IMG/VR virus record: IMGVR_UViG_3300036859_000369
Coordinates: 1 to 63,656 of that record
From: a virus
Lineage: Duplodnaviria > Caudoviricetes
DNA: 63,656 bases
Strand: one strand, 5' to 3'
Shown here: piece after piece, positions 9,589 to 62,376 of the stretch
Layout: each line of letters begins with the position of its first letter
Position numbering within the stretch: position 1 is the stretch's first letter
Made by a program: the position numbers and the translations under genes
Notes under the pieces: model-generated
The model's input: only the letters and a program-made list of their open reading frames with translations
Told to the model about the DNA's origin: nothing
Databases searched by the model: none

Positions 9589-12500
9589 CAGATGGTCCCC
9601 AGCGGCGCCCGGCGCGTCTCTACGGCCACGTCCCGCCCACGGATGTACCATTCGGCCAGAACGCGCCCGGACGGATCTCTGAGGACGAATTCATGCCGTT
9701 GTAACGGAGCCGGCTGTCGTCCCTGATTGCCGACGTTCATCCAGTCAGGTAGTGGGGCTACAACTTCCCGGTGTGTCCCCTCGCCCACGCGGACAACGGT
9801 ACCGCCCGGAGTCGGACTGATGATGCCGCCGTTCTGTAGCCCCAGGATGTCCCGCAGATAGGTCCGTGTCTCGCCCGGCAGGTCACCCAGGTTGCCCGAC
9901 CACGAACGGACGTTGCCTGGCCCCCAGTTGTACGCGGCCAACATCCGGACAACATCGCCACGAAACATAGTCAGCATCTGTCGATCGTAATGAGCCGCGC
10001 CGCGTAACTGGTTGGCTGGATTGCCCATCAGTGCGGCCACAGACATGCCAAGCTGACGGGCGATCTCAACGGCCGTCCCCGGCATGAACTGTCCGAGTCC
10101 GGCCGCGCCGGATCTCGGGTTGACCGCTGTGGGATCGAAATTCGACTCGCGCTTGATCTGACGGACAAAGATGTCCGGATCGATGCCGTACTCACCGGCC
10201 ATCATCCGGGCAATATCCACCAGTGCGCCGGTCGGCATCGAAATCGCTCCTGGCCCGCCAATGGTGCCGAATAATCCCTGTGCCGCTGCCAGCAGCTCGC
10301 CAGACTTGCTCTGCATACCGCCAATCAGTCCCGCGATCAGATTCGATCCGATTTCGTGAAACACCGTCGACGGGCTATGGATACCGAGCAGTTTTTGCAT
10401 CCATTCGGGCAGCTTTTTCCCGATGTTGTCCGTGATCCACTGCTGGAGACTGCCCCAGTTATCGGACAGCCCCTTCTGTATCCCTGTGAGCATGCCGGCC
10501 CCAAGAGCGGCCGCCTTCCCAACAATACCATCAGCATTCGATGGGTTGACCTGATTGGCAATCCACGTACCGATCTCCAGGGTGATCAGCACCAGTTTCG
10601 CCACAAGATGCGGGACAACATCCGTCGCGATCCACCCGAGAAATGCCAGTCCCCACTTTCCGAGTGCTTGCGCAAACCCGTTCGGATTCGTCACGTCTGC
10701 CTGTTGAGTAATCCAGAGCTTGATACTGTCGGACAGCTCGCCCAGTTTCAGCAGTAAGCGCGCCCAAACCGGCACGACCCACTGGACAAACTCAACGGCC
10801 CATTGTGCCAGTTGCGTGACGATGGCCGGCAACGCGTCCGTAACGATCCAGTTGCCAACCGACAGGAGTAGCTTGCCGAGCTCAGTCAGCAACGGCTGGA
10901 TGCGCGGGCCGACCCAATCTACGATCGCGCTGCCCCATTCCAGGAGCTTACCTGCAATGGCCGGCAACGCATCCTTGATCACCCAGTCCGTCAACGACAC
11001 CAGGAGTCGCCCGAGCGCGGCCAGCAGTGGCGGAATCTTTGGCCCAACCCAGTTGACGAATTCAACCGCCCATCTGCCGATCGCATCCAGCAATTCGCCG
11101 GTGTGCTGGCCCATCCATTCGACCGTACGGGCGATCAGTTTGCCGAATTCGGTGAGTAATTTCGGAATGACCGGTCCAACCCAGGTGATAAATTCGGTTG
11201 CCCATTCCAACAGTTTGCCGGCCAGTTTCGTTGCGTTCGCGCCGATCCAATTGAGTACATCGCCGGCGAGGGCGGCCAGCTTGCTCAACAGATCCAGGCC
11301 GGCAGTTCCGATCCACTGCACAAAGGCAATCTGCCACGCAACCAGTTTTTGACCGATCGGGCCGGCGTTTGTCTCAATCCAGCGGTACACACCATCAATG
11401 ATCGCCTGTAGTCCATTGAAGAACGGCGGGGCAGCGTTACGAACCCAGTCCAGCAACACCGTTGACCATTGCGTCAGGAGTCCGCCGATACGCGGGGCAG
11501 CCTCGCCCAGTGTGCGCAGAACCGCTGTCACGATCCCGCCGAAACCGTCCTCGTTGAACGCGCGCCGGATCTCCATAAACCGAGTGGCTACGGCGGTCAT
11601 GATCGGTTGACCGATGATCGCTTCTATTTTGGCCTGCAACTGACCGGCCAGTTGTCCAACCGCGATACCGCCGATGGCCGCCCCGATGCCGGCTCCGAGT
11701 ATGCCGCCGATGGCTGTACCGATCACCGGAACGACTGACCCCAACGACGCGCCAATCGCGGCCCCCCGGCCGGCTCCGAACAACATGCCGGCCAGGGTCG
11801 CTCCGGTGACGATCGGATTTGCCGTGATCCACTCGACAAACCCATCACGCAACTGACCGGCCAGGCGGGCACCATTCTCTTTTGCTTTGGCAATCGCCTG
11901 TTCGGCTATGGCGTCGGGAGTGAATGACTTATCGGTGGGCGCCTTCGGAGCCGCGTCTCGCGCTTCTTTCGCGGCCTTTGCGGCTGCTTTCGTTGCCGAT
12001 TCGGCATCCCGGATGGCCGATGCCTGTGCCTGAATCTCGGCCTTGATCTCCTGTTGTACCTGTTTCTGTTCGGTCAGGGTCGATTTCTGGCGCGTCAGAC
12101 TGTCGAGCTGCTCCTGGAGTGGCGCCAGTCGGTCCTTTTCCTCCTGTTTGATCGCTTCGATTTGCTGTTTGATCGGCAAGGCCGCCATGTCGCGACGCAG
12201 TTTGTCCTCTCTTTGCGCCGTGTCCAGGATGTCCTTACGCTCTTTCAGCTCGGCTTGCGCATCCTTGATGGCAGCCAACCTGGGCTTATCGACCAGGTTC
12301 GCTTTCTGTTGGTTGAGATCCAGGATTTCGCGATCGATACCGGCTAACACCTGTTGCCGCTTCGCTTCGGCCATCTGCGCCTGACGCTTTTCGTCACGCA
12401 CGACCCGTTCGGCATCATCGATTTCTTTCTGTCGGGACCGTTGTGTGTCCTGATCTTTCTGCTTTTCGGCCGCGATCTGCTTTTCTAGCTTCGCTGCCTT

Positions 12501-22822: not shown

Positions 22823-22843
22823 GTTCACCCTCGCGGTGTTGCG

Positions 22844-23830
22844 TCATTTCGGAATGACGCAGTCGGCCGGGGCTACAACGGCGTACGCTTCGGCCACCTT
22901 TCTATCCACGAATCCACCAGTTTCCGTGCGGTAATTCGGCTGGAAATACTGACGGGCCATCAGGTAACGCAGCGTATCAACCATGCCCGGTGTCCACTCC
23001 GCGATATCCCAGAGTCGCGAACCGATCAGCCGCGATCGGGCCGGCTCTTCCAGGTGCATCACGAACTGTGCTGCCTGCGTCATGATGTCTCTGCGCCAAT
23101 CCCGATCTAGCACCGTCCTTGACGCGCTACCATCATGGACACGGACCCATCCGAACGCATTCGGGGTGTAGACCGCGCCGTACCGACAGGCGGCAATGTG
23201 CCAGGTCAGCGTCTCCGAGTACGGCCAGAATGCCGGATCCCAGCCACCATGCTGGTCCCATGCTCGCTGGCTGATAACACACCCGGCCGCATGAATGATG
23301 CCACGCACACCCAGCAGTCTAGCTACAGCATCGGGCGACAGATAGCGCGGGGCCATCGTCACGCCGTCAACCTGGTTGTTCGACTCTGGTCCCCAACCGA
23401 GATGGATGCCAGCCACGTCGCCCACAATCACATCAATCTGCCTGTCCGGCAAGCTGCTCTGTCGTGGGTGAAATGCTTCGATCGCCTCGAAGATGGACGC
23501 GATTGCGCGCGGCTCCATGACATCGTTGGCGCTCGCAATGTAGAAATAATCACCCCTGGCGATCCGGGCGCCTTCGTTCGTCGCTTTCGCGCACCCCTGG
23601 TTGCCATCCGCCGACACCACAATCTGCATCGATGGCATCATATTGCGCCGGAATGCACACGCAATGTCAAACGTTGTATCCGTCGATCCGTCGTCCATGA
23701 CGATGACTTCTACGTCCGATTCATAGCGGGACGTACAGACCTGTCGCGCGATGCTGCGCAACTGTTCCGGCAGGTGCCGCTGCTCGTTATAGGCGGCAAT
23801 GATGATGCTAAGTCGCGGCGACATGGACAT
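22844..23830 (-). CDS. Glycosyltransferase family 2
   Basis: LSIIIAAYNE...VIVMDDGSTD...NQG. Confidence 0.92.
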   Translation of the reverse strand: MSMSPRLSIIIAAYNEQRHLPEQLRSIARQVCTSRYESDVEVIVMDDGSTDTTFDIACAFRRNMMPSMQIVVSADGNQGCAKATNEGARIARGDYFYIASANDVMEPRAIASIFEAIEAFHPRQSSLPDRQIDVIVGDVAGIHLGWGPESNNQVDGVTMAPRYLSPDAVARLLGVRGIIHAAGCVISQRAWDQHGGWDPAFWPYSETLTWHIAACRYGAVYTPNAFGWVRVHDGSASRTVLDRDWRRDIMTQAAQFVMHLEEPARSRLIGSRLWDIAEWTPGMVDTLRYLMARQYFQPNYRTETGGFVDRKVAEAYAVVAPADCVIPK

Positions 23831-28663: not shown

Positions 28664-30739
28664 CTAGACCTTGACGCGGGCAGCCTCGCCGGCTCGCTTT
28701 GCCAGGTCCGGATGCTCCGATGCAATCTGACGCTGGGCCTCGCCAATACCGATACCCTTTTCAGCGGCGCGCTTCGTGGCCAGGGCCGTAATCTGTTCCT
28801 GGGGATCAGCGCTCGTCTCGGCGGATGACGTGCCGGCCTCCCCGAACAGGTTCGACGTACGCAACTGCTCGGCCAGCGCTCGCTGCTGGGCGACATAGCC
28901 AGTGAAGAGCTCGTGGTCCTCGCCCACCGTGGATGACAGGTGTTCCAGGTGCGCAACATGGGCGGCCGGCTCACCGAACCAACGCGGCCCGCCGCTTTCA
29001 GCCTTGCCGGTTACTTCCTCAGTAAACCGCTTGCGCCGGGCATCGCGCTCCATGGTCTGGACGCGCTCAGCCAGTTGTGTCGCCTGTGTGGCGGACTGCT
29101 CGGCCGTCGCCTTGCTGGCTTCAAGCTCGGCCGCGATCCGCTTGTTTTCGGATTCCAGCTCGCTCATGCGCCGCGACTGTTCCTCAGTCATCGCAACCGG
29201 GGTGCTCTCCGGCTTCGGGTTGGGACTGGCCATCGGACTCGCCTCCTCTGTGCTGTGTGGCGCATCTTCCGATGCCGCCAGGGATCGCAGCGCCGCTGGC
29301 TTGAAAAACGGGCGCGTGGTCAACGCTGCGCCCATCAAGATGTTTTCATGCGTCTCACCGTTGATCGGGTCTCGCCATTCGTCATACCAGGCCGGACTGA
29401 TGTAGAAGAACCGATCATCGCGCAAGGCGTCGGCCCCGCGCTCGTTCCATTCCACAACCGCGTCAACCGACCCGTCCGTATTCGTTACGAGATCCGTAAT
29501 CCACCCGGCTGCCCCACCCAGCAACGTCTCGTGCTCCAGGTCAATTGGCAGCCGGTCCTGGTACACGTGGTCCTGGAAATTCTGCACGAACGACGCGATC
29601 CGATCCGGGCTCATATCGATCTTGCCGTAAGCCGGATGCGCGTACGACCCCGGGACCGGCAAGATCGGAATGGTCGCCGGCGGTTCTATGTACTGCCGTT
29701 CAGACATCACGAGCGGCATGTCTCGGTACGGCACACCCCGGAGCGCGAACGTCTCGCGACCAGCCTCGTCCCGGCTGGACGATACCGTCAGGTTGTCCAG
29801 TGGGACCGTCACATCCGGTAGCGCCACTGTCATGGCGCGCCCCGGTTCAACGTAGGCGAGTGTCACGTGCGGGGTAAACGCATGATCGGATCGCGGCGAC
29901 AGGCCGGCTTCATACAGGGCCATGCACAGGCGCCAGCGAAAATCCTGGAGTCCTCCACAGTCCACGACCGCATAGATGACGTCCTTACCGTCGCTGCCAT
30001 GCTCCGCGCTAAACCGACTCACGCCACACAGGCGCAGCTCGATCGGCTGCACCGTCAGTGCGAACGCCTGTACCGCGATCCGTAGCCGCTCAGTGGCATC
30101 GCCCGGCAACTCGTCTGACTTGCCGAGATAGGCGAGTGTCAGGTGCAAGTCGCCGGGCAGCTCGCCTCCGGGAATGGCGATCTCGTTTGCCACATCGGAC
30201 GGCAGCCAGAATCCGACCCACAGGCTATCGCCTTCGGCTGCCGTGAATGCTTCGGCGGTTACGCGGTTGCGGGCTTTCGCCACGCCGCCTGCATAGCCGG
30301 CCGCCGCTCTGATGATCGCTTTGAGATCCGCATCCGACAAGTCGCCGTCCTTGATCTTGGACTTGATCAGGTCGCGCAGTTTGCCCAGATAGTCGGCATT
30401 CGGCTCGGCCAGGTACTCCGGCTTGATGGCCTGCATCGCCAGTCGTTGCGCCAGATCCGTCACACCATCCGCGCGTTGATCATCCGGCCAGCCGATCTCG
30501 TCCAGGCACAAGTCCGCGATATCCTGGGTCGTCACGCCTTCCAACATGGTCGGCATGGATTCGGTGCCCATGACGACGCCATTGGCCTGCGCGAATGCGG
30601 CCGACTCGGCATCCTTGTCGGACTTGCCGTCCTTTTTGGCTCGTGCATATGCCGAATTCCACACAGCAACCCATTTGCGCTGGTCCTTTTTGTCCAGCTT
30701 CTTGACGGCATCGGGCACCGTGGCTAATGTGTACGGCAT
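28664..30739 (-). CDS. Fusion: ChaB-like + 2H phosphoesterase + Mu-like prohead protease + scaffold
   Basis: PDAVKKL..QRKWVAVWNSAY..AFAQAN; HLTL and HVTL; PIDLEH..AAGWI..VEWNERG..YISP..ALTTRPF; coiled-coil tail. Confidence 0.85.
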   Translation of the reverse strand: MPYTLATVPDAVKKLDKKDQRKWVAVWNSAYARAKKDGKSDKDAESAAFAQANGVVMGTESMPTMLEGVTTQDIADLCLDEIGWPDDQRADGVTDLAQRLAMQAIKPEYLAEPNADYLGKLRDLIKSKIKDGDLSDADLKAIIRAAAGYAGGVAKARNRVTAEAFTAAEGDSLWVGFWLPSDVANEIAIPGGELPGDLHLTLAYLGKSDELPGDATERLRIAVQAFALTVQPIELRLCGVSRFSAEHGSDGKDVIYAVVDCGGLQDFRWRLCMALYEAGLSPRSDHAFTPHVTLAYVEPGRAMTVALPDVTVPLDNLTVSSSRDEAGRETFALRGVPYRDMPLVMSERQYIEPPATIPILPVPGSYAHPAYGKIDMSPDRIASFVQNFQDHVYQDRLPIDLEHETLLGGAAGWITDLVTNTDGSVDAVVEWNERGADALRDDRFFYISPAWYDEWRDPINGETHENILMGAALTTRPFFKPAALRSLAASEDAPHSTEEASPMASPNPKPESTPVAMTEEQSRRMSELESENKRIAAELEASKATAEQSATQATQLAERVQTMERDARRKRFTEEVTGKAESGGPRWFGEPAAHVAHLEHLSSTVGEDHELFTGYVAQQRALAEQLRTSNLFGEAGTSSAETSADPQEQITALATKRAAEKGIGIGEAQRQIASEHPDLAKRAGEAARVKV

Positions 30740-30753
30740 CTGCTCGCCTATGC

Positions 30754-30791
30754 AAAAGGGCGGCCCCGGTGCACGTGCACCGGGGCCGCCC
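30754..30791 (-). terminator. Intrinsic terminator in the leader of the protease/capsid operon
   Basis: Perfect 34-bp palindrome 30758-30791 followed by TTTT on the minus strand. Confidence 0.7.
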
Positions 30792-30976
30792 TGCGTTCCT
30801 CGGACGGGAGAGCGTATAAGGGTGGGCCGGTTGGCGAACCTACTCGGGCAACGGGTCCGCGCGTCCCGTACGGTCCTTTTCACATTCGCCAACGAGCCCA
30901 GGAAAGCGGATTGGCGGTGTCCCAAGATATAAGGCCGGCGCCGGCCCCTTGTTCGACCACCGTTCCGCTATCAGTC

Positions 30977-40754: not shown

Positions 40755-41150
40755 TCAGAACGGCAGGGAATTGTCCGGAATATCGCCGTAATCCTTGCCG
40801 TAGGTATCCGAGTCATCGTCCTCACGTCGTCTGACCGTCATCATCTCGACACTGTCCGCGATGACTTCGAGTCCGGCCCGTGGGTTGTTGCCCCGGTCCG
40901 TCCATGGCCTGACTGCCAGTCTACCGTCAACGTAGACCCGCATGCCTTTCTCCAGGATCTCCTGGAGTGATTCGGCCCGTTTGCCAAACAACACCACTGA
41001 TATCCACTCGGTTGTATGCTCCCAGGTGCCCTCACGGTCTCGGACGCCAAACTGGGCCGCCACGCTGAACCGCAGCACCGGATCGCCGTTCGGGGTGAAT
41101 CGCAGCTCCGGGGCGCCGCCCAGATTGCCGATGAACGCTAGCCGTAGCAT
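40755..41150 (-). CDS. ssb: Single-stranded DNA-binding protein
   Basis: IGNLG..PELRFTPNG...KGMRVYVDGRL; acidic tail ending LPF. Confidence 0.95.
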   Translation of the reverse strand: MLRLAFIGNLGGAPELRFTPNGDPVLRFSVAAQFGVRDREGTWEHTTEWISVVLFGKRAESLQEILEKGMRVYVDGRLAVRPWTDRGNNPRAGLEVIADSVEMMTVRRREDDDSDTYGKDYGDIPDNSLPF

Positions 41151-41247: not shown

Positions 41248-41313
41248 CTCCGGGGGTCACGAACGGTGGAGCCTCTTGCATTCTCCACGTCATTTCAGAA
41301 ATGACCCCCGGAG
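41248..41313 (-). other. Extended stem-loop at the 3' end of periodic tract A
   Basis: ctccgggggtca pairs with tgacccccggag; inner gtggag/ctccac; contains the 17-bp GTCATT variant. Confidence 0.65.
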
Positions 41314-41324
41314 CATACCACACT

Positions 41325-41686
41325 GGACGTGTGCGCGGGTGGCTGTTTGCATGAACGATCGTTCGTCCGTACGCATGCTGTGAGCGTGAGCGCGGCTGTA
41401 CGCTGGTACGCTAGCGGGTGAGAATGTCTGTCGGTTCGGCTGCGTTGACCGCATGTCTGTTCGGAGAGTGTTCGTCCGGTTGCTGGTACGGGTGTCGGTA
41501 CGCATGCGTGAATGTGTGGGTGGTTGTGGGCCGGCGGGTGGGTACGTTGGACCGTTGGCCTGGATGTGGGTGAATCTGGATGTACGAACGTCGGTAGGCA
41601 TGCGGGATGGGCTGTACGCATGAATGATGGTTGGTATGGATGTTCGGGTGATCTGACCGACTGTTAGACTGACGGATCGTCTGCCT
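41325..41686 (-). ncRNA. Periodic tract A (period 4, sense CRNN), putative guide-RNA array
   Basis: Plus strand parses as ggac gtgt gcgc gggt ggct gttt gcat gaac gatc gttc... with a few phase slips. Confidence 0.7.
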
Positions 41687-42005
41687 CAATCGTGTATGGG
41701 ATCGGGTAGTCATCCGAATGCTCGTCATTCTGAAATGACGCGTACCTGGGCTCCGGTCGCCCTATCGCCTGCATGTCCGCCTGGGTTGCGCGTCGTTCAG
41801 TCAATGGCAAGTACACGCACCGTTCCGGGTGACTGGCCGATAGTAAGCAGGTCCGGATGGTCCATGCCCCGAACCTGATCGACGTTCGCCCACAGATCTC
41901 CTGATCGATGCCAGCCCGGAATGCATGTCGTCCGAAATGTGGTTTCGCACGTGTACACCGCTCCGGGGTGCCTTCAGTCAGATCGATCACGTCGCAACGG
42001 TTCAT
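41664..42005 (-). CDS. Cys/His-rich hypothetical protein
   Basis: ATGA overlap; C..C...H.G.H pattern. Confidence 0.5.
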   Translation of the reverse strand: MNRCDVIDLTEGTPERCTRAKPHFGRHAFRAGIDQEICGRTSIRFGAWTIRTCLLSASHPERCVYLPLTERRATQADMQAIGRPEPRYASFQNDEHSDDYPIPYTIEADDPSV

Positions 42006-42778: not shown

Positions 42779-42981
42779 TACTCCGTGCGCTTCAGTTGCA
42801 GGATCGTCCGACCGCCGGCCTGTTCGGCAGCCTGTTGCGCCGCTTCCTCGTTCGGATAGACCGGCAAGTAGCCAACCATGTGATCCTCGCGGGTGCTCGA
42901 TGAAATGTCCCACGGTCTGACGGCCAGGATTGCCCATAGGTGCCCGTTCGCATCTGTTTCGATGTCGAGATCACTACTCAT
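42778..42981 (-). CDS. Hypothetical protein
   Basis: GGAG RBS, coupled. Confidence 0.55.
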   Translation of the reverse strand: MSSDLDIETDANGHLWAILAVRPWDISSSTREDHMVGYLPVYPNEEAAQQAAEQAGGRTILQLKRTE

Positions 42982-42983
42982 CG

Positions 42984-43409
42984 TTACTCCGGGAGTGGCC
43001 GTTGTTCGATCGGATCGGACCACGGCCAGCGCCAGCCGCAACCAGTAGCCAGTGTCGTCGGTCCCCAGTCGATCGGGCAATGATACACGTAGTTGCCGTC
43101 CCCGAGAATCATCTGTATCCGGATGCGTGGTCCGCCGCAGTTCGGGCACCCGGACGGGTGTGGGTGTTTCGCTGTGTTGGCTTCCATCCGGGCCATCAGT
43201 GCACGGACAGACGGCTGCATCCACCAGGAGACTTCGGGTGATGTTCTGACGTGCGGCGGTTCAGGTCCAGGTGCTGTGCGTCGAACGGCTGTCTGTGTCT
43301 GGCCGGTCGCCCGTTGATTGTGCGCGGACAATTTCTTCAGTTCGTCGGCGCGCTGCTTTGCGATCTGTTTGTCACGTGCTCGCCGGTAGGCGGCTCCCCC
43401 GTCTGCCAT
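42984..43409 (-). CDS. Hypothetical zinc-ribbon protein
   Basis: GGAGG RBS just after the hairpin; CPNCG...C...CGW. Confidence 0.6.
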   Translation of the reverse strand: MADGGAAYRRARDKQIAKQRADELKKLSAHNQRATGQTQTAVRRTAPGPEPPHVRTSPEVSWWMQPSVRALMARMEANTAKHPHPSGCPNCGGPRIRIQMILGDGNYVYHCPIDWGPTTLATGCGWRWPWSDPIEQRPLPE

Positions 43410-43420
43410 GCTGTCCTCCG

Positions 43421-43456
43421 CGCCCGCCCGGTCATTCTAGAATGACCGGGCGGGCG
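43421..43456. other. Perfect 36-bp palindrome at the 3' end of tract B
   Basis: cgcccgcccggtcattct|agaatgaccgggcgggcg. Confidence 0.9.
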
Positions 43457-43920
43457 GTTGTCTGTACGGCCGGTTGTGCGTTCGTCCGGATGGTCGCATG
43501 CGCGCCGGTCTGGTGGTCCGGAAGATCGGATGTTCGTTTGTTCGCACGATTGGTTGCAGGTTCGGCCGGCGGTTCGGCTGATCGTATGGCCGAACGTATG
43601 GGCGCATGTACGATCGGTGGGCCGAAGGTGTGCCCGGAGGGTGGGGTTGATCGCCGGTCGGTGCGGGCTGTCTGGCTGTCCGGTTGCCTGATGGTCGGTA
43701 CGCTCGCCGGTGCGAGTGAATGGGCAGGTTGATCGTGCGGCTGCCTGTGGGGCTCGCTGGTTGGTGTGGTCGTTTGAACGACTCGCCTGCACGCATGCGC
43801 GAGGGAATGTCGGAGCGGATGTCCGCCGGAATGCGGGGTCGATCGAATGTCGGTATGAGGGGCAGAACGTCTGTACGTGCGGGTGATCGGCTGTGCGCAG
43901 GTACGTGTGAGCGCGGGCTA
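43444..43920 (-). ncRNA. Periodic tract B (period 4), putative guide-RNA array
   Basis: 51 consecutive G-initial tetramers at 43444-43647 and 30/30 at 43801-43920 (hand count). Confidence 0.75.
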
Positions 43921-44433
43921 TGACGCTTGTTCGTTGACCTGGACAGACCGCCGGCCCTCGGTGATGCCGCCTCGGACCGCGTCGCCCACCGCTTCGGCTG
44001 CCTGACGGGCTACGAGCTCGCCGTCTATCGTTGGGTCCAACGCCGCCAGCAGTTGCGCCTGACTCCGGTAGGCGGCTGGCCCCTCCATGTTCATGAACCG
44101 TTGGATTGACCGGATCGCCTCGCGCCGGTTCACGTCGTCCAGTTCTGCGATACGTCGGGCCGTGCGGTTGATCCGACCGCCCCGGCGATCGGGCGCAAAC
44201 TGTCGGATGCCATCCTCAGTCCGGGCGCGAGCCGTGTACGCCTGAAGTCCGGCCCGGACGGCCATACGTTGCAGCGCGTCTCCGTCCGGCTCGATGCGGA
44301 TCAGGCCGGCCCGTTGGGCTGCCAGAAGACGGCTCATCATGTCGTCAATCGATTCGTACCCATCCTCTCCGAGAGACAACGCCTGATCGATGGGTATCAC
44401 GTCGTTCGTGGTGGTATCGATGATTCGGAGCAT
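43918..44433 (-). CDS. Hypothetical protein between tracts B and C
   Basis: AAGGGG RBS; 171 aa, helical. Confidence 0.7.
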   Translation of the reverse strand: MLRIIDTTTNDVIPIDQALSLGEDGYESIDDMMSRLLAAQRAGLIRIEPDGDALQRMAVRAGLQAYTARARTEDGIRQFAPDRRGGRINRTARRIAELDDVNRREAIRSIQRFMNMEGPAAYRSQAQLLAALDPTIDGELVARQAAEAVGDAVRGGITEGRRSVQVNEQAS

Positions 44434-44453: not shown

Positions 44454-44489
44454 GGTGCCCGGGGTCATTCTGGAATGACCCCGGGCACC
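44454..44489. other. Hairpin with 17-bp arms at the 3' end of tract C
   Basis: ggtgcccggggtcattc-tg-gaatgaccccgggcacc. Confidence 0.9.
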
Positions 44490-44490
44490 T

Positions 44491-44824
44491 GATGGTGTGC
44501 GTTGACCGCTAAGCCGTCTGTACGAATGTACGTGCGGCCGGTGGAATGCCGGGACTGTGTGCCGGCTCGGCTGCGTGTCTGGCCGTTCGTCTGCGAGACG
44601 GATGGAATGCTCGTTTGAGGGTCAGCCCGGGTGTCCGGTCGTATGCCTGTCTGTCCGCCTGCTTGTTTATCTGTACGGCTGAGCGCTTGCGGGAAGGCTC
44701 GGTTAGACCGTCCGCTGGCATGTGCGGTTGTTCGTAGGAATGGTCGCCTGTGCGGTTAGGATGGGGGAATGAACGATCGGATGCGCGGTTAGGCGCGTTC
44801 GTGAGTCCGATCGTGGGATCGGTC
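44491..44824 (-). ncRNA. Periodic tract C (period 4), immediately downstream of the RAMP-like gene
   Basis: 30/31 G-initial tetramers at 44581-44704; phase slips often at ggtta. Confidence 0.75.
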
Positions 44825-45962
44825 AGCGCTGGCCGTTGGCGCCCTGCACGGTCCGGATGGTCTCGGGCTTGACGCGGTCGCGTGGGTCGTCGTCGTCGTT
44901 GTTCATCGGCAGGTCCATCGGCTCGGGCGGCATCGGCACGTGCTCGCCGTTCGACATGGTCACCCAGGACTCGCCCGTAGACGTTGACACAAGCACAGCG
45001 TCGGCCGGTGCCTCGTTCGGGGCAGATGCGTACTTCTGGGCCTTCGTGACGGTGTCCGCATGGCCCGGCCAGACCTGTCGGCCATTGATTAGCAGACTGC
45101 TGACCACGCCGACTCCCCAGATGCCGCCCTTGCCGGTGCCGGCGCTGCTGATCCCGACATCCTGCACCTGCTCAAACAGGTTGATCAGGTAGCCCTCGGA
45201 AAAGTGGGACAGCGGGAAGTTTGCCCGGATGGTGATCTGGGTCCCGCCCGGCAGCGCTTCGTGCACGATCTCGCCAATCGCCTGTCCCCGGATGTTCGTC
45301 GGCCGGCGGGATGCCCGGATCAACACCTGATCCACCGGCATCAGGATGGTGCCGACCCGGACCCGGTGCCAGGCCACATCCGGCAGAACCCGGCGCACAC
45401 CGGCCGCGTCAATCGTGACGGTCGGGTCGCCCTTTTTCGCTGCCTTCTGAAACGCCGTCAGAATCCAGCCGCCCAGGAGCGCCACCCGGCCCGGCGTGAT
45501 GATGTGCCGCTCGTTGGCGACTTCGGTGATCCGCTTGCCACCACGCCCGGTCCGTTCGATCGTCCGCTCCCGCATCTCGAACGTTTCGCCCACCCGGGGG
45601 AACCGTGAGATGCCGACGCCACCCGGATCGGTGAAACAACCCAGGGTCGGGGTGAGGAACGTCCAGACCGCTTCCACCGGCGCCCACGTACTGTACGGCG
45701 CGATGTAGCGGGCTTCCATCTTGGACCGCAGACCGTCAAGGGCGGACCGCCCGGTCGCCGTGATCTGGTAGCCGGAATCGCTGTTCTGCCGGGTGATCGT
45801 GCCGGCCCGGTCCAGCTTCGTGATCATCTTCCGGATCGCGGACTCTTCTGCTTCGTCGTCCTGCTCCTGGACAGCCAGGATGATCTCGTCGTCCTTGAGC
45901 TCGCCACCATCGGCCACAGCGGCGAAAATCGCCAGTTCAATCGCCTGATTCTTCCCTGCCAT
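44823..45962 (-). CDS. Winged-HTH + RAMP/Cas7-like protein
   Basis: N-terminal wHTH-like (AIRKMITKLDRAGTITR...YQITATG); RAMP-like order: WTFLTPTLG, RFPR, LLGGWILTAFQKAA, HEALPGGTQITI, G-rich loop VGISSAGTGKGGIWGVG. Confidence 0.65.
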   Translation of the reverse strand: MAGKNQAIELAIFAAVADGGELKDDEIILAVQEQDDEAEESAIRKMITKLDRAGTITRQNSDSGYQITATGRSALDGLRSKMEARYIAPYSTWAPVEAVWTFLTPTLGCFTDPGGVGISRFPRVGETFEMRERTIERTGRGGKRITEVANERHIITPGRVALLGGWILTAFQKAAKKGDPTVTIDAAGVRRVLPDVAWHRVRVGTILMPVDQVLIRASRRPTNIRGQAIGEIVHEALPGGTQITIRANFPLSHFSEGYLINLFEQVQDVGISSAGTGKGGIWGVGVVSSLLINGRQVWPGHADTVTKAQKYASAPNEAPADAVLVSTSTGESWVTMSNGEHVPMPPEPMDLPMNNDDDDPRDRVKPETIRTVQGANGQR

Positions 45963-46198: not shown

Positions 46199-46230
46199 CC
46201 GGGTGGGTCATTTGGGAATGACCCACCCGG
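46199..46230. other. Hairpin with 14-bp arms at the 3' end of tract D
   Basis: ccgggtgggtcatt-tggg-aatgacccacccgg. Confidence 0.9.
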
Positions 46231-46437
46231 AATGTATGCACGATCGCTCTCGTGGTCGCTGGTTCGCCTGGCTGAATGCCTGCCGGTACGGGTGTCCCGG
46301 TGAATGACTGTTCGCTTGCGTGCGGGTGTGGATGCCCGACTGCTCGTGGGTACGATCGCCCGGATGCTCGATGGGCGGTGTGAGGGTCTGTACGTACGGA
46401 CGTTCGATCGTCCGCCGGCCCGGTCGATCGGTGGTCA
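46230..46437 (-). ncRNA. Periodic tract D (period 4), putative guide-RNA array
   Basis: 52 in-phase tetramers; 50 start with G and 42 end in C/T on the plus strand (hand count). Confidence 0.75.
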
Positions 46438-47613
46438 GTCCTCGGTCGCGGCCGTTGCTGCTGCTTTGTCGCGCTTGCTGGGCCGACCGCGCTTTTTACC
46501 GGCCGGCTTCGGCACCGGCATCAGTGGCTTACCGGCCGGCTTCGGGAGGCTGTCCACGACCTTGCCCAGCCATTCGTACAAGGCGACCGTCCGGGTTACC
46601 GTCAGTCCGGACAGGTTGCTCGCCACCAGGTGGGCGTCAAGGTTGACCAGGTATGGCACGGTACCGAGCACATCCGCGAATGACAGCCCATGTGGTGCCG
46701 TTGTATCGCCTTCGTCCTCCTCATCCGGAGCTACATCCTGGTCAGCCGGTGTAATCACGGTGCCCGACACGGCTGCCGGATCGGCCAGCGTCTCGCCTGC
46801 CTGCTCGGGGCAGTGCGGGCAGGCATCCAGGTCCGGCGAGAAATGGGCGCCACAGTCCAGGCAGTGCTCGACCGGCTCCAGGAATCCCACGTCGGCGCAA
46901 CTGCCGTTCGGGCACTCGTAATACTCGGTACCGGCCGGGATGTCCTCCAGCGCCACCGGCTGCACCCCGACCGGCTCGGACGGCACCGTGGTTGCCCGGC
47001 GTGATCCACTGATCGGCGTCGGTTCGTCGTCATCCTCCTGGGCTGGTCCCTCCAGGTACTCCCGGACGGCTGCCCGCACATCGGCAACCGCCCAGTTTTC
47101 GCGCTCGGCCTGATTGAGGATGTCCTCCGCGACGTCGGCGTGGTCCGGCATCAGTGGGGCGACTGCGACGTGATGCGTAAAGGTCAACTTTTCGCGGCGC
47201 TGCTCAGGCGCAAATTTGCCGCAGATGGACATCAGGTTCTTCAATGAACCGTAGTTCTCGCCTTCGAGAAACTGGCTGTACTTCTGTTCGTACTTCTCGT
47301 TGTCCATGGCAAAGCGCAACAGGTCGCCCCGCCACCACTTGGACATGTCCGCGATGTTGTTGGCCCCGGCGAACGACCTGGACCAGCCGTCCCAGGAGAG
47401 ATTCTCCGGGATGATCGCGGCCGTGGGGGTAAACGTCGTCCGGATGCCCGGCAGACGAATCGGCCCACGGACCAGCGCGCGCCCGGTGCTGTCTGACTGC
47501 TCGGTACCGTCGTCCTGGCCGTCCTGATCGTCTGGTGTGTCGTTCTGGTCGTCCGGCGCCTCCGGGGTGCCCTGTGCCTCTTCGAGCTCGGTCGTATCGA
47601 TTGCCACGATCAT
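46435..47613 (-). CDS. LmbU-like DNA-binding protein with a double zinc ribbon
   Basis: WWRGDLL...RREKLTFTHHVAVA...AERENW...VRAAVR; CLDCG...CPHC; GGAGG RBS. Confidence 0.65.
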   Translation of the reverse strand: MIVAIDTTELEEAQGTPEAPDDQNDTPDDQDGQDDGTEQSDSTGRALVRGPIRLPGIRTTFTPTAAIIPENLSWDGWSRSFAGANNIADMSKWWRGDLLRFAMDNEKYEQKYSQFLEGENYGSLKNLMSICGKFAPEQRREKLTFTHHVAVAPLMPDHADVAEDILNQAERENWAVADVRAAVREYLEGPAQEDDDEPTPISGSRRATTVPSEPVGVQPVALEDIPAGTEYYECPNGSCADVGFLEPVEHCLDCGAHFSPDLDACPHCPEQAGETLADPAAVSGTVITPADQDVAPDEEDEGDTTAPHGLSFADVLGTVPYLVNLDAHLVASNLSGLTVTRTVALYEWLGKVVDSLPKPAGKPLMPVPKPAGKKRGRPSKRDKAAATAATED

Positions 47614-47675
47614 TCCTCCGTTGTGCTGCGTGCCGCGACACCATACCACGGATGGCATCGCGGCACAATCGCCAA

Positions 47676-48117: not shown

Positions 48118-48146
48118 ACCATACCACGGTGGTATGCAGGTGTCAA
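48118..48146 (-). promoter_or_regulatory. sigma70 promoter P3 with operator (heads the RAMP/array operon)
   Basis: TTGACA-17-TATGGT; ATACCACCGTGGTAT. Confidence 0.8.
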
Positions 48147-48192
48147 GGAGTTTTCGAGGCAATTTCTGGCAATCTGCGAAATCCGTGTCCGG

Positions 48193-48756
48193 TCATTCCA
48201 GAATGACGCGGGCGCCTCGGTTCGCCATTGCCACAAGGTACTGGATCGCGGCGCAGTTCTCGCGCCAGTTACGCGGACTCAGTACAGGCACGCCGTTGGC
48301 GTCAAGGATATTCCCGTAAAAACCCGCGTCCTCCGGCCATGGCTGCCGATCGGCCGGACTTGACCACGGCAACGGCGGCAGATCCGGACTGGTCAACAGT
48401 GGGTGTGGTGCCATCCCCCGATCGATGCTCTCGTGCAAGCGGTTGATATCGTCCAGCAGCACCGGCACGAATCCGGCGATATGTGTCACCGGGTCGCCTT
48501 CCGTCAATGCGTCCGGGTGTGTTCTCCGTACGGCGTTCGTGCTGCACCACTCGCGCATGGACGCGCGGTCACTCCCAGTCAGGAAAACGCGCGATCGATA
48601 CGCCTGCACGATCTCGTTGCGAACGTCGGCACCAGTGTACACCGGTGCGTCCGCGTCGAATACCATCCGGTCCAGAATCGCGCTCGTTGCCTTGAAACCT
48701 TCGGGTGTTTCCGACCACGCGCGGATATGGTCCGCTTCGCTGTCTGTGCCTGCCAT
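48193..48756 (-). CDS. Hypothetical protein
   Basis: AAGGGGTAC RBS; ends in a GTCATT palindrome. Confidence 0.6.
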   Translation of the reverse strand: MAGTDSEADHIRAWSETPEGFKATSAILDRMVFDADAPVYTGADVRNEIVQAYRSRVFLTGSDRASMREWCSTNAVRRTHPDALTEGDPVTHIAGFVPVLLDDINRLHESIDRGMAPHPLLTSPDLPPLPWSSPADRQPWPEDAGFYGNILDANGVPVLSPRNWRENCAAIQYLVAMANRGARVILE

Positions 48757-48768
48757 CGGTGTACCCCT

Positions 48769-49587
48769 TCAGTGTGCGTGCGGGATATCCCGGAGATCCG
48801 GACCGTCCATCTCAATCGGTTCAGCCATCCGCTTGACCCGGCCCCAGATGCGCGGCCCGAAATACTCGGCCATTTCGGCGTGTCCGTGCTCGTCTACGGT
48901 CGCCAGGTTGCTCGTAATGATGGTCGGCAGATGGTGGTCGTGCCGGTACCCCAGGATTTCGTACAGGAATTCGCCAACCCAATCCTTTGGCACTTCTGTG
49001 CCCATGTCGTCCAGGAACAACCAGCGCACGGCTCGCAGTGACTTACGCAACGCTTCCTGTTCCTCGGAATTGCCAAACGTCGCCCGCACATCCGCCAGCA
49101 ACGACGGCACCGTCCGGAACAGAACGGACTCGCCGCGCTCGGCCAGTTCGGCCGCCATGCCGCCGGCCAGGGTGGTTTTCCCTCTCCCGCTCGGACCATA
49201 CAGCAACAGCCAGTGATGACTGTCGTGGTCCACCTTCGGATCGTCAAGCCAGCGGACCGCTCGTCTGACGGCCGCATGGTCCGGATGCTCTCGCCACGGA
49301 TAGGTCCGGTACTCCGGCGGCAGTTGCGCCTCTCCGAACCTCCGGCGGATCGCTCGCTGCACCCGCTCCTGGCCAGCCGGGCACGCGCATTCGACGGTCT
49401 GCCCGAATCGGTCGTCCGTGGGTGGCACATCCAGCCGGAGTAGCCCGACCCCGAGACACCGGATGCATGTCGCTTCGTCCGGCTGGTAGTCATCATCGGG
49501 CCGGGGGTTGATCGTGACATACCGGGCAACCCAGTCGGCCGCCTGATCCGGTGTCAGCTTCGAAATGACCGCCCCGACCTTCCTCAT
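48769..49587 (-). CDS. DnaC/IstB-like AAA+ ATPase (helicase loader)
   Basis: GPSGRGKT, LFLDDMGTE, PTIITSNL, N-terminal Zn motif. Confidence 0.92.
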   Translation of the reverse strand: MRKVGAVISKLTPDQAADWVARYVTINPRPDDDYQPDEATCIRCLGVGLLRLDVPPTDDRFGQTVECACPAGQERVQRAIRRRFGEAQLPPEYRTYPWREHPDHAAVRRAVRWLDDPKVDHDSHHWLLLYGPSGRGKTTLAGGMAAELAERGESVLFRTVPSLLADVRATFGNSEEQEALRKSLRAVRWLFLDDMGTEVPKDWVGEFLYEILGYRHDHHLPTIITSNLATVDEHGHAEMAEYFGPRIWGRVKRMAEPIEMDGPDLRDIPHAH

Positions 49588-50999
49588 ATCCCGCGCTCCC
49601 GGCCCTCTGCTTCGATCTCAGCCAGAATCTCGGCTTTGATCGCCTGTTCCCGCGCTTTCATCCGCTTGATGTTCTCGTATTCGGACGGGGCGAGCTGTCC
49701 GCCCATCCGGAATCGGTCGCCTGGCCGCCCCTGTTGCGTGCCCCCACGTGCAGGTGCACCCGCGTGCCCGTTCGTCTGTTTCGGCCGACCTTGCACGACC
49801 CATGCCGTGTAATCGTTGATCCGATCACAGATATACCACACAGAGAGATTGCCCTGCACGCCATTGCCGCCCCACTCACGTCGGTATGCGGCAATGTAGG
49901 CGGCTGCGATCGCCTCGGCATCGGCCCCGCATTTCTTCACAGCACCCGCGTCCCGGGCTGATGGGGTGTACGGCACATCGGCCGCGCGGATACCGTCGAT
50001 CACAGCGGCATATTTGTTGGGTGTCTTTTCGGGGGGTGCTGCGCGTCGATTCTGGACGCCTGATTTCGTGGGGGGTGTACTTTGACGCAACCGGGGCACC
50101 GGACGCGCCTGACGCGCCGCTCCGGGGCTCTGGAGGGCACTCCTGACCTTCCGTGTCAACCACGGTTTGGCCGGGTCTGGCCCCGGGGTGGCTAATTGAG
50201 ACTGATTCTCACGTGGACTAGCCAGAGGTCCTGACGGTTCTTTCACTAAGGCAGGTGGTGTGTCGGTCGCCGGTTCGATCAGTTGTTTGGCATATGGACC
50301 CAGGATGATGTCAGACCACGCGGCTAAACTGTTTTCTTCGGTTTTGACCGATGGCGTCCGATCCGGAATGAGCGTAGCGAATGTAGGATCGGAACGGGGG
50401 TCCGGGGGCAGCGCCCCCGAAGTACCTTCTACTTTTTCTTGTAATACTATTCTTTGTGACCGTACAGTTTTGCTGGTCCCCCCTCCGTACAGTTTTGCTG
50501 GTCCCCCCTCCTGGTCATTTTCGGGGGGGACCGTACCGTTTTGCTGGTCCGGGTAGGCAAAACTTTCCGGAGCATCGGAAACATGCAAACTGTATCGAGT
50601 CGGAAGGCTCCCGCCATCGGGCGCCGTCATGGTCGTGGCGCGAATCATGCCCATGGATCTCAGGTCGCGAATGGCTTGCAACAGCGACCGCTCAGACAGG
50701 CCAGTCCCGTGGTCTAATCGAGTGCCGTCCCTCCGAGTGATGCCGTGCATCAGTTGATCTAAACTGATGGTGTCGCCGTCAGGCTGTCCGAATCCGTAGG
50801 TGCGCCGTGTGATGTAGAGAATCACGCGCAATTGAGACAGCGTAAGCGATACCATCCACTGATCGATGATCGTGTTTGGGACCGGCGTCGTATTCGGCGC
50901 GGTCAACCATTTCGGCGCACCATCCGTCTCACCCGTCACGTATTCCGGCGATTCTTCGCGGACACGGCGCGGCGCGGATGTGCTAAACTGTCTACGCAT
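49584..50999 (-). CDS. Replication initiator (lambda O-like N-terminal domain)
   Basis: PNTTPVPN.IID...LRVILYITRRTYGF...ISLDQL..GTGLS; upstream of the DnaC-like gene. Confidence 0.8.
   Translation of the reverse strand: MRRQFSTSAPRRVREESPEYVTGETDGAPKWLTAPNTTPVPNTIIDQWMVSLTLSQLRVILYITRRTYGFGQPDGDTISLDQLMHGITRRDGTRLDHGTGLSERSLLQAIRDLRSMGMIRATTMTAPDGGSLPTRYSLHVSDAPESFAYPDQQNGTVPPENDQEGGPAKLYGGGTSKTVRSQRIVLQEKVEGTSGALPPDPRSDPTFATLIPDRTPSVKTEENSLAAWSDIILGPYAKQLIEPATDTPPALVKEPSGPLASPRENQSQLATPGPDPAKPWLTRKVRSALQSPGAARQARPVPRLRQSTPPTKSGVQNRRAAPPEKTPNKYAAVIDGIRAADVPYTPSARDAGAVKKCGADAEAIAAAYIAAYRREWGGNGVQGNLSVWYICDRINDYTAWVVQGRPKQTNGHAGAPARGGTQQGRPGDRFRMGGQLAPSEYENIKRMKAREQAIKAEILAEIEAEGRERGI
50427..50550. 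repeat. Putative replication origin: iterons plus AT-rich tract inside the initiator gene
   Basis: ccgtacagttttgctggtcccccct twice in tandem (50460, 50485), a third variant at 50531, AT-rich 50427-50459. Confidence 0.7.
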
Positions 51000-51092
51000 C
51001 GAGCCAACCTCCCAGATAATCTCGATGCCGTGCCCAGAACGTTGACAGCGTTGCTGGGCATTTTCTATGGCATCGCGGCAGTATAGCACGGT

Positions 51093-51881: not shown

Positions 51882-51910
51882 ACTATACCACCGTGGTATA
51901 GTGCTGTCAA
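51882..51910 (-). promoter_or_regulatory. sigma70 promoter P4 with operator
   Basis: TTGACA-17-TATAGT; TATACCACGGTGGTATA. Confidence 0.85.
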
Positions 51911-51942
51911 GGGGTTTCCGGGGCAATTTCCAAAAGTCGTGG

Positions 51943-52182
51943 TCATTCCAAAATGACCGGTGGAACGTACCGATCCGCCCGCCAGCGTCCGAGCGCCCGT
52001 TGCGCCAGCCCCATAGCGTACGCGCTGGTTGGGGCGCCTGCCAGGATCTCTAGCGCGGCGGCGCATTCTCTCAGAATGTCGATCGATCGCTCCGGATTGT
52101 CCCAATGCTGGTCGCATGCCTCGGTTGCCACGACCGTCAGTCCGTTATCAGTCAACTGCCCGCAGAATCGGCACGGACTCAT
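51943..52182 (-). CDS. Hypothetical protein
   Basis: CRFCG; ends in a GTCATT palindrome. Confidence 0.55.
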   Translation of the reverse strand: MSPCRFCGQLTDNGLTVVATEACDQHWDNPERSIDILRECAAALEILAGAPTSAYAMGLAQRALGRWRADRYVPPVILE

Positions 52183-55968: not shown

Positions 55969-55997
55969 ACTATACCACGGTGGTATTAGACTGCCAA
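55969..55997 (-). promoter_or_regulatory. sigma70 promoter P5 with operator
   Basis: TTGGCA-17-TATAGT; ATACCACCGTGGTAT. Confidence 0.8.
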
Positions 55998-56030
55998 GGG
56001 GGTTTTCGGGTGAATATCAGAAAGTCGCGG

Positions 56031-56513
56031 TCATTTCGGAATGACTCGGACAGCCATGCCGGTGATACCACTCATCATCATCTGGAGACCCTGTGCACCG
56101 GTCGGGTACGGCACGATCTCGACGCCCAACGCGTCCAGGTGGGCAACCCAGTCGGCCAGTTGCAGGATGGCTGCATCGTACGCCGCCTGCACCGGCCGGC
56201 CAGTCGTGTCGTCGCGCTCGCCCTGCACAAGGACGGCAATACACTCATCCTTGTGGTAGGCGTCCGTCACGCTATCGGGCGGATAGACGCGATCATCCTC
56301 GAAACCCGGTATCCGGACGATATCCGAGATGTTGATGTCGAACGGCGACGCGTACACGTACCGCGTCGGCCGGTAAGCGATGTGGTGATCACCATGTCGC
56401 AACCCGACGCATGGTCGCATGATACCGATCTCGCCCTGATCCTCGAATACGATCCTATGCGCCTGTGCGAACGCCTCGATGCGTTGCCGTGCGAGCGCTA
56501 CTATTACTGCCAT
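56031..56513 (-). CDS. Hypothetical protein
   Basis: AAGGGG RBS; ends in a GTCATT palindrome. Confidence 0.6.
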   Translation of the reverse strand: MAVIVALARQRIEAFAQAHRIVFEDQGEIGIMRPCVGLRHGDHHIAYRPTRYVYASPFDINISDIVRIPGFEDDRVYPPDSVTDAYHKDECIAVLVQGERDDTTGRPVQAAYDAAILQLADWVAHLDALGVEIVPYPTGAQGLQMMMSGITGMAVRVIPK

Positions 56514-62065: not shown

Positions 62066-62094
62066 ACTATATCATGGTGGTATGTGGGTGTCAA
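62066..62094 (-). promoter_or_regulatory. sigma70 promoter P6 with degenerate operator
   Basis: TTGACA-17-TATAGT; ATACCACCATGATAT. Confidence 0.8.
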
Positions 62095-62136
62095 GGGGTT
62101 TTCAGGCAATTTCCGATCAGTTTTCAAAAGTCGTGG

Positions 62137-62376
62137 TCATTTCGGAATGACCCCTGCCGCGCGCAACTGCTGGGCGACGTTGTCAAGGATCATGATTTCA
62201 TTACCCAGGTGTCCGAGTTGCGTCGCCAGCGTGCCCGCGCTCCGGCCATCCGGCTGGTAGTGTTGGAGATCGGCGGCCAGCGCATCGTGCTTGCTGCGCT
62301 GAATGGTCAGCATGGCTTCCGTCTGCGTCAGGAGGGCTGACAGCTTGCCCGCGTCGATCGATGGCTGATCGTTCAT
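62137..62376 (-). CDS. Hypothetical coiled-coil protein
   Basis: ATGA overlap; ends in a GTCATT palindrome. Confidence 0.55.
   Translation of the reverse strand: MNDQPSIDAGKLSALLTQTEAMLTIQRSKHDALAADLQHYQPDGRSAGTLATQLGHLGNEIMILDNVAQQLRAAGVIPK

Follow-up and report, generated by a model that had tools for sequence, protein, structure and literature searches.

Intergenic period-4 tracts around a predicted winged-helix-RAMP gene in a phage contig: candidate VIPR-like arrays with a tetranucleotide unit

What could hold one base fixed at every fourth position over hundreds of nucleotides of intergenic phage DNA while two of the remaining positions vary almost freely? This question is raised by a tract in the IMG/VR viral contig IMGVR_UViG_3300036859_000369, which we analyzed over its whole length (63,656 bp, 60% GC; hereafter, the window). 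Almost all genes of the window lie on the - strand. In the direction of that strand, they encode an O-like initiator, a DnaC-like loader, a 187-aa protein, and a 407-aa protein, followed by tract D, a 379-aa protein, tract C, a 171-aa protein, tract B, a 141-aa protein, an endonuclease-like open reading frame (ORF), tract A, SSB, a DUF5681 protein, the large terminase, and the portal. The four tracts, A to D, are located between the replication and packaging modules. With Actinoplanes phage phiAsp2 (52%) and, next to it, Streptomyces phage TurkishDelight (51%) carrying the closest terminases, an actinomycete is the probable host. The tract region had no DNA match among 50,697 phage records, and no relevant family for the tract was found in Rfam. 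A sigma-70 scan, whose consensus is poorly suited to actinomycetes, gave no promoter-like site on either strand between positions 41000 and 47800.

One possible answer comes from the systems called Viral Interference Programmable Repeat (VIPR), which were described in 2026 as types I to VII and which, according to the accessible part of the original preprint, are mostly phage encoded (10.64898/2026.04.26.720920). Below, we describe the tracts, the proteins encoded around them, and a related locus and weigh this answer against four others.

The four-base register of the tracts

Tract B (43440 to 43917) fills the space between a hairpin and the stop codon at the end of the 171-aa gene and is a period-4 array that reads NNYG on the + strand and CRNN on the - strand, which is the gene strand. 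A sequence-only reading of the window had described G at every fourth base up to position 43644, in 51 tetramers; this description held, except that the run starts at 43440 and not at 43444, giving 52 Gs on the + strand, or 51 full tetramers. That reading had also counted about five single-base phase slips followed by 30 of 30 positions in phase. We found exactly five phase changes, each of +1 (43644/45, 43665/66, 43722/23, 43751/52, and 43780 to 43785), and after them 34 in-phase Gs (43785 to 43917), which include the 30 noted before (43801 to 43917). The 114 units of tract B are thus grouped into blocks of about 51, 5, 14, 7, 7, and 33, and tiling placed C at the start of the unit in 114/114 units.

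The G signal of tract B had a period-4 power of z = 24.5, while periods 3, 5, and 6 were not significant. No base recurred at period 4 in a run longer than 14 when the window was shuffled (n = 200) or longer than 16 in shuffles of tract composition (n = 2,000), against 52 observed, and a chance origin of the register is excluded. The tetramers themselves were diverse, as had been claimed, with 30 distinct ones among the 51 units of the long block, and the tract is not a microsatellite, the only hit of Tandem Repeats Finder in it being a 16-mer in 2.4 copies. Families of direct repeats within the tract showed about 63 to 83% identity, which is the level expected from the common register alone. 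Neither strand folded significantly better than shuffled sequences (z = -0.85 and -0.59), and the gene strand folded weakly (-127.5 kcal/mol over 461 nt versus -209.5 kcal/mol for the other strand).

The three other tracts follow the same pattern. Tract A (41325 to 41683) has about 91 units with the fixed base in 89/91 (z = 15.3), tract C (44516 to 44821) lies directly after the stop codon of the 379-aa gene and has about 76 units with the fixed base in 75/76 (z = 16.3), and tract D (46254 to 46438) abuts the stop codon of the 407-aa gene and has about 47 units with the fixed base in 46/47 (z = 14.6). All four tracts are intergenic and carry the G on the + strand, and period-4 strength comparable to theirs was found nowhere else in the window. 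Together, they amount to about 328 NNYG units (or CRNN units when read on the gene strand) over about 1.3 kb, or about 2% of the genome, and the fixed base is present in 324/328 tiled units (98.8%). No higher-order repeat was found in any of them.

Composition was evaluated over the 312 units that are strictly in phase. Position 3 was C in 39%, T in 36%, G in 21%, and A in only 4% of these units, so that the strand asymmetry proposed from tract B (G fixed, its partner C or T, sometimes G, and rarely A) extends to all tracts. Positions 1 and 2 were near uniform, and 55 different tetramers occurred. The variable positions had a GC content of 44 to 49%, compared to 60% for the genome, a value that is not obviously expected of guides directed at GC-rich coding DNA.

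Tiling permitted units of 3 to 6 nt, and yet 315 of the 328 units were 4 nt long, with 11 of 5 nt, 1 of 6 nt, and 1 of 3 nt. Among the 11 phase changes in all tracts, 10 were by +1 base and 1 was by +2, and none shortened a unit; in 7 cases, the change was a single extra G. Phase changes that only lengthen are compatible with the idea that slips separate guide units.

Spectral power in the four tracts was restricted to period 4 (z = 14.6 to 24.5); the z value for period 5 did not exceed 0.7, and periods 3 and 6 gave no power. Flanking genes, unlike the tracts, showed period 3. This bears on the reading of the tracts as protein-coding sequence, that is, as unusual repetitive ORFs, which could be proposed since ORFs of 119 to 153 aa span tract B, frames are open on both strands, and none of the - strand frames is interrupted by a stop codon in tracts B and D. 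The missing stop codons are explained by the low T content of these tracts, the one-base slips break every frame, and the 3-base periodicity of the flanking genes is lacking. In addition, tblastx against the related locus described below (L121) yielded no consistent frame. We give a coding function almost no credence.

The protein encoded between tracts C and D and its neighbors

The gene between tracts C and D (44823 to 45962, - strand) encodes a 379-aa protein that is our candidate for a Vipr-like filament subunit. Its predicted architecture consists of a winged helix (residues ~1 to 85), a RAMP/Cas7-like core (~88 to 306), and a disordered tail, with a conserved glycine-rich loop, GTGKGGxWG, at residues ~275 to 283. 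The protein belongs to a small family. Eight homologues were found among 5.8 billion clustered proteins, and when 1.84 billion representatives were searched with a profile, only 21 proteins came up, all of the winged-helix-RAMP family. The winged helix, the motifs RRPxN, GExxHE, and SHF, and a glycine-rich loop, VGFSPAGxGxxGG, were common to 20 family members.

An AlphaFold2 model built from nine sequences had a pLDDT of 68.5. When this model was compared to the PDB with Foldseek, almost all of the best 50 matches listed were chains of the Cas7 family (RAMP backbone) or complexes containing them, including Cas7-11, type VII Cas7, Csm3, type IV Csf2, and type I-A Cas7. The best E value was 8e-7, the target TM score reached up to 0.55, and 125 matches had an E value of at most 1e-3. 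The ESM Atlas model of the protein, which is independent of ours, gave TM scores of 0.57 to 0.60 to PF03787 RAMP clusters and also matched several clusters of unnamed viral proteins, and the best match in BFVD was a phage protein whose annotation reads "Cas system-associated RAMP superfamily protein." At the sequence level, only weak matches of the N-terminal winged helix were obtained (HTH_12, MarR-like), with no detectable similarity to RAMPs, and alignment of the single SUSP1 Vipr sequence to the family alignment with hhalign gave a probability of 0.2. Because similarity to RAMPs or to SUSP1 Vipr is not detectable in sequence, the RAMP assignment rests on predicted structures, and models of moderate confidence thus predict a winged helix fused to a Cas7/RAMP fold. 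RAMPs are stated by the VIPR authors, in the part of their preprint that was accessible, to have little sequence similarity to each other (10.64898/2026.04.26.720920). Searches of cultured phage records by tblastn gave no match for either the RAMP or the 171-aa protein.

Two neighboring genes could encode accessory proteins. The 407-aa protein (46435 to 47658, - strand), encoded upstream of the RAMP gene, has Cys-rich motifs and a domain resembling LmbU-family regulators (residues 82 to 210), which matched NF038070 with an E value of 9.2e-20, under the curated cutoff; it is a candidate DNA-binding accessory protein. The 171-aa protein (43918 to 44433, - strand), which is encoded next to the RAMP gene in L121 as well, is another accessory candidate, with eight homologues and an AlphaFold2 model (pLDDT of 74.5) that matched no PDB fold (best E value, 1.3). 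Sequence searches of the PDB with the 407-aa and 171-aa proteins returned nothing. Downstream of tract B, the Cys-rich 141-aa protein (42984 to 43409, - strand) had no homologue in L121 and no family match.

Neither a CRISPR array nor cas genes accompany the RAMP gene. Tandem Repeats Finder reported four small unrelated repeats only, and seven neighboring proteins had no match to cas families in PADLOC and NCBIfam. The repeat-spacer array and cas gene set that characterize class 1 CRISPR-Cas are thus both missing.

The same neighborhood invites a reading in which the tracts act as DNA, single or double stranded, to which a protein filament with a 4-nt footprint binds, serving as assembly or nucleation sites and not as guides. 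The filament could be formed by the RAMP protein itself, which carries a winged-helix domain, or by a replication or recombination protein of the neighboring module. In favor of this reading, the tracts fall within the replication module, where SSB, the DnaC-like loader, and the O-like initiator are encoded. A constraint that is strand asymmetric and tolerates 5-nt units, not 3-nt ones, is what a subunit footprint would produce, and a fixed base at the subunit register has a precedent in the origin of assembly of tobacco mosaic virus (TMV), where G is fixed at every third base and each coat subunit covers 3 nt. The TMV origin is, for its part, the packaging signal of an RNA virus, measures a few dozen nucleotides, and involves no RAMP protein; four arrays of about 1.3 kb together exceed what nucleation sites need. 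No single-strand-annealing recombinase was identified among the neighboring proteins, and RAMP and Vipr proteins bind RNA in every case described in the accessible parts of the sources. Overall, we regard a DNA-binding array as unlikely.

A related locus and the ends of the tracts

Profile searches with the family alignment and with an alignment of the 171-aa protein led to one relative at the level of the locus, L121, which is a contig of IMG/VR (57,620 bp). Searches with the single 379-aa and 407-aa proteins, and a search of metagenome and genome contigs with the family alignment, found no related locus, and searches with one of the homologues and with two other alignments came back empty as well. 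The gene order of L121 is DnaC-like loader, homologue of the 407-aa protein (33% identity), RAMP (41%), and homologue of the 171-aa protein (56%). Each of the three intergenic regions that surround the L121 RAMP gene had period-4 C power on the gene strand (z = 6.0, 16.8, and 13.1), with no power at periods 3, 5, or 6, and their unit consensus is C-R-N-N as in the window, T being rare at position 2. The L121 arrays are more degenerate, with the fixed base in 285/356 tiled units compared to about 65% when the same tiling is applied to coding DNA. The tracts of the window and of L121 did not align. Since the period-4 rule is kept despite this, the pattern of the tracts is conserved while their sequence is not, and period-4 tracts lie beside the RAMP gene in both of the two loci examined. 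A conserved reading frame in a relative, the finding that the sequence-only reading had named as speaking against it, was not seen in L121, where the period-4 constraint alone is kept.

Conservation of the rule between loci whose proteins are only 33 to 56% identical is difficult to reconcile with a mutational origin, in which the tracts would be decayed tetranucleotide microsatellites or a by-product of mutation with no function. Period-4 arrays do occur in other viral contigs. A wider scan of viral contigs for (GNNN)x25, which neither found nor excluded further diverse cases, gave at least 118 other stretches, and all those listed were ordinary tandem repeats of low diversity; they had at most 0.46 distinct tetramers per unit, though, versus 0.59 to 0.82 here. 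The 7 of 11 phase changes that add a G after a G likewise resemble slippage in a homopolymer. Decay would, however, erode all four positions alike, and here one is kept in 98.8% of the units and two are nearly random, the slips all go in one direction, and a compact phage genome spends about 2% of its length on the tracts. We therefore consider decayed repeats very improbable.

In the direction of the genes, each tract of the window has the same anatomy: it begins where the upstream gene stops, at the stop codon or adjacent to it, reads (C-R-N-N)n, and ends in a strong GC-rich hairpin just ahead of the ribosome-binding site of the next gene. In tract B, this hairpin is the perfect 36-bp palindrome that the sequence-only reading had pointed out; it occupies 43421 to 43456 (arms 43421 to 43438 and 43439 to 43456, 100% matched; -35.9 kcal/mol, z = -5.5) at the low-coordinate tract end, ahead of the 141-aa gene with its ribosome-binding site and ATG. 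The hairpin of tract C, also at the low end (44454 to 44489), is 36 nt long, with perfect arms of 17 nt and a 2-nt gap (-38 kcal/mol, z = -6.4), and that of tract D is a 32-bp palindrome (46199 to 46230; -29.4 kcal/mol, z = -3.0) between the tract and the ribosome-binding site of the RAMP gene. The palindromic hairpins of tracts C and D have perfect arms around a loop of 2 or 4 nt. Tract A has a composite hairpin at its low-coordinate end (41250 to 41311; -40.2 kcal/mol, z = -4.4), which includes a palindrome at 41289 to 41305, and a second, bare palindrome at its opposite end (41724 to 41739).

The hairpins of tracts B, C, and D share the core GTCATT-N4-AATGAC. This 16-bp motif occurs in 17 copies in the window, versus 0.02 expected, and 9 to 11 additional stem pairs are present only in the three copies adjacent to tracts. 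Overall, a hairpin stands at the gene-sense 3' end of 4/4 tracts in the window and of 2/3 tracts in L121, where it is likewise GC rich and ahead of the next gene.

This anatomy, together with the base composition, recalls Rho-dependent termination. Rut sites are C-rich, G-poor, poorly structured stretches of untranslated RNA between genes, followed by a pause hairpin, and lambdoid phages keep Rho-dependent terminators between their replication and packaging modules. The tracts could accordingly be cis-acting transcription elements, namely, Rho-loading (rut-like) leaders followed by a hairpin that acts as a pause site or terminator, which would time the expression of downstream genes and to which the RAMP gene would be unrelated. 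The gene strand, with about 40% C and 22% G and its weak folding, fits such leaders, as do the stop codons at one end, the hairpins ahead of ribosome-binding sites at the other, and the location between the two modules. The register does not follow from this reading. Rut sites need C-richness and, to our knowledge, have neither an invariant 4-nt register nor a rule for a second position; a C fixed in 324/328 units is far stricter, and the purine rule at the next base and the lengthening-only slips go beyond what the model needs. Nor does Rho loading account for the presence of this rule around a RAMP gene in L121 as well as in the window. We judge it quite unlikely that the tracts are Rho leaders.

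Other candidates were dropped. Mutagenesis of the diversity-generating retroelement (DGR) type had no A-rich template, and quadruplet decoding, an array of primase or topoisomerase sites, and arrays of RNA polymerase pauses failed to account jointly for the register and the RAMP neighbor. None of the rival readings explains both the invariant register and the association with the RAMP gene.

A guide-array reading and its relation to VIPR systems

Starting from what the analysis shows, namely, the periodic constraint, its conservation without conservation of sequence, the prediction of a RAMP fold, and the synteny, we consider it probable, by analogy to VIPR, that tracts A to D are tetranucleotide VIPR-like guide-RNA arrays and that the 379-aa winged-helix-RAMP protein is their Vipr-like partner. 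By analogy to VIPR and to Cas7 filaments, the tracts would be transcribed, and RAMP protomers would polymerize on the transcript, one per 4-nt unit. Each protomer would sequester the invariant base and its restricted neighbor (YG in + strand notation, CR in that of the gene strand) and present the two variable bases, which together might form a noncontiguous code for recognizing DNA or RNA that belongs to a rival phage, to some other mobile element, or to the host. As for the GC-rich hairpin found at one tract end, it may be a structured end or handle of the RNA, and the fused winged helix and the LmbU-like neighbor could make those contacts to DNA for which known VIPR types have separate Vap proteins. 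The sequence-only reading had proposed selection on a single strand, most likely as RNA, with guide-like units. This proposal gains partial support from the context, through the RAMP/Cas7-fold gene between the tracts and the VIPR precedent.

Either strand could provide the RNA. In favor of a gene-sense RNA (CR/NN), the RAMP gene would be co-oriented with its arrays as in SUSP1, no separate promoter would be needed, and the hairpin would lie at the 3' end like the tail of a vrRNA, the guide RNA of VIPR systems. In favor of a + strand RNA (YG/NN), the fixed letters would be a G and a pyrimidine, the same ingredients as in the GGY of VIPR. A search for targets with 2 or 3 informative bases and skips of 0 to 3, in which guides of the window were compared to the window and L121 and guides of L121 to the window, gave no match above those of shuffled guides.

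If this guide-array reading is correct, the roughly 328 units would be enough for 20 to 30 guides across four intergenic regions, and RAMP filaments would not be locked to 5- or 6-nt registers. Since the spacing of protomers would differ, a 4-nt register would entail a different guide-target helix, and both the spacing rule on the target side and the geometry may differ from those of the published triplex with its 1-nt skip. A natural 4-nt register, combined with another order of the fixed letters and a fused DNA-binding domain, would widen the known design space of noncontiguous RNA-guided recognition and would offer a test of how RAMP geometry sets the code. It would also extend VIPR-like systems to phages of probable high-GC actinomycete hosts. 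The candidate guides of the locus form a natural library of unusual size, and comparison with matching metagenomes or host pangenomes could show against whom these phages compete.

Among known systems, Cas7 filaments (Csm3/Cmr4, Csf2, Cas7-11, and type VII Cas7) provide the best structural matches of the modeled 379-aa protein. As described in the accessible parts of two preprints, Cas7 proteins bind RNA periodically, with one subunit per register and a thumb that disrupts pairing at regular intervals (10.64898/2026.04.26.720920, 10.64898/2026.04.26.720927). They differ from the present locus in their 6-nt register on repeat-spacer crRNAs and in their Cas5, Cas6, Cas8, Cas10, or Cas11 partners, whereas here the register is 4 nt and includes a base-specific position.

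The closer likeness is to VIPR. In the accessible part of its description, a VIPR locus encodes a minimal RAMP, Vipr, of about 20 kDa and in most cases a single accessory protein, some of these having winged-helix or HTH domains, and the intergenic regions that flank it are long and encode vrRNAs; the vrRNA has 9 to 16 YNNGG repeats and, 3' to them, a structured tail that is conserved, with Vipr holding the GGY bases while NN pair with DNA so that every third target base is skipped (10.64898/2026.04.26.720920). The cryo-electron microscopy companion preprint, as far as accessible, reports one protomer per repeat (10.64898/2026.04.26.720927). All seven types are pentanucleotide in the text available, with NNNGG, YNNNG, and NNNNG as alternatives, and staggered arrays with no tail are mentioned for some of them (10.64898/2026.04.26.720920). 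The Vipr family is given there as a PSI-BLAST cluster seeded by X1U2U4. Later VIPR-related preprints were also compared (10.64898/2026.10.21.760802, 10.64898/2026.10.15.759431). The accessible part of a language-model survey lists periodic arrays at 60 to 79, 18, and 5 nt and minor groups at 10, 8, and 7 nt, with noncanonical 5-mers such as CAC/NN and TGH/NN; no 4-nt array appears in that part. Further 5-nt units of VIPR are GAC/NN and WGT/NN. Tetranucleotide, four-nucleotide, or pentanucleotide repeats are not mentioned in the corresponding part of a third VIPR preprint, and our literature search for a RAMP guide of tetranucleotide repeats found nothing.

As a positive control, the SUSP1 VIPR locus gave period 5 in the same spectral test (z = 15.3). 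There, vipr and vap share their strand with the YNNGG arrays, and the G-bearing strand is thus the gene strand in SUSP1, in contrast to the present locus, where it is antisense to the genes. Therefore, either the fixed base of the RNA is C here or the RNA is antisense.

As far as the accessible VIPR text allows comparison, the present locus resembles VIPR in several respects. A phage protein with a predicted RAMP fold lies outside any CRISPR-Cas context, the likeness being one of fold, and is flanked by intergenic arrays of short units: tracts C and D adjoin the gene, tracts A and B follow further downstream, and L121 has the same arrangement. Fixed positions alternate with two hypervariable ones in a pattern that is kept while the sequence is not, a structured element that may compare with the vrRNA tail stands at one end of the array, and winged-helix or DNA-binding functions are predicted nearby or in fusion. 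On the same basis, the differences are a unit of 4 nt (YG/NN or CR/NN) in place of 5 nt (GGY/NN), with no period-5 power in any of the four tracts, fixed letters ordered Y-G (or C-R) and not G-G-Y, blocks that range from 5 to 52 units and follow each other with no intervening tail compared to 9 to 16 repeats per vrRNA, and a RAMP of 379 aa with a fused winged helix compared to a Vipr of about 20 kDa. The architecture is thus the one that defines VIPR systems, but the pentanucleotide unit, which is also a defining trait, is lacking. Because of this, and because the size and fusion of the protein, the length of the arrays, and the order of the fixed letters differ, we place the locus outside VIPR types I to VII, as a variant. 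In our judgment, the chances are about even that it represents an undescribed VIPR-like class, in which a tetranucleotide code would combine two fixed bases with two variable ones, each 4-nt unit would be bound by one RAMP protomer with its fused winged helix, and the arrays would be very long and continuous.

A palindrome repeated across the window

The 16-bp palindrome GTCATT-N4-AATGAC, which forms the core of the hairpins at the low-coordinate ends of tracts B, C, and D (three of the intergenic period-4 G arrays), was found 17 times in the window versus 0.02 expected, with copies, for example, at 2245-2260, 22843-22858, 48192-48207, and 62136-62151. The majority of the 17 copies were bare and lay at minus-strand gene junctions. 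The motif is probably an operator or terminator of the window phage, and it represents a candidate site for a winged-helix or LmbU-like protein of this phage.

At five sites (2190-2275, 48137-48222, 51887-51972, 55975-56060, and 62081-62166), the palindrome closed an approximately 60-nt element that is conserved among them, with the consensus GGTGTCAAGGGGTTTTCGGGGCAATTTC.GAAAGTCG. Since TTGACA is present on the minus strand of this element, about 35 nt past the palindrome, the five copies look like repeated promoter and operator units.

Other repeats, periodic runs, and a composite ORF

Perfect repeats were also present inside ORFs, namely, a 25-bp direct repeat of 2.1 copies (50460-50511) within the O-like replication initiator ORF (49584-51089), where the repeats are candidate origin iterons, and a 27-bp tandem repeat of 2.8 copies (5032-5106) within ORF 4645-5451. 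The 1695-aa ORF at 9588-14675 harbored both the strongest AT skew of the window (-0.44, at 12001-13000) and a run with T at each third base (12511-12544). Ten further in-phase period-4 Gs formed a short run at 42798-42834, between the gene for the Cys-rich 141-aa protein and an endonuclease-like ORF; the ORFs called in this region overlap one another, and their calls are doubtful. The 753-aa ORF at 28664-30925 combined an RNA-ligase-like segment (residues 228 to 379) with a head-maturation-protease-like segment (447 to 706).

The VIPR locus of SUSP1

In the published VIPR phage SUSP1 (NC_028808.2), our period-5 control, the RAMP gene vipr (agp039, 195 aa) and the accessory gene vap (agp038, 146 aa) are both still annotated as hypothetical proteins. 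At this locus (27.6 to 29.3 kb), a single strand carries the YNNGG arrays, vipr, and vap alike.
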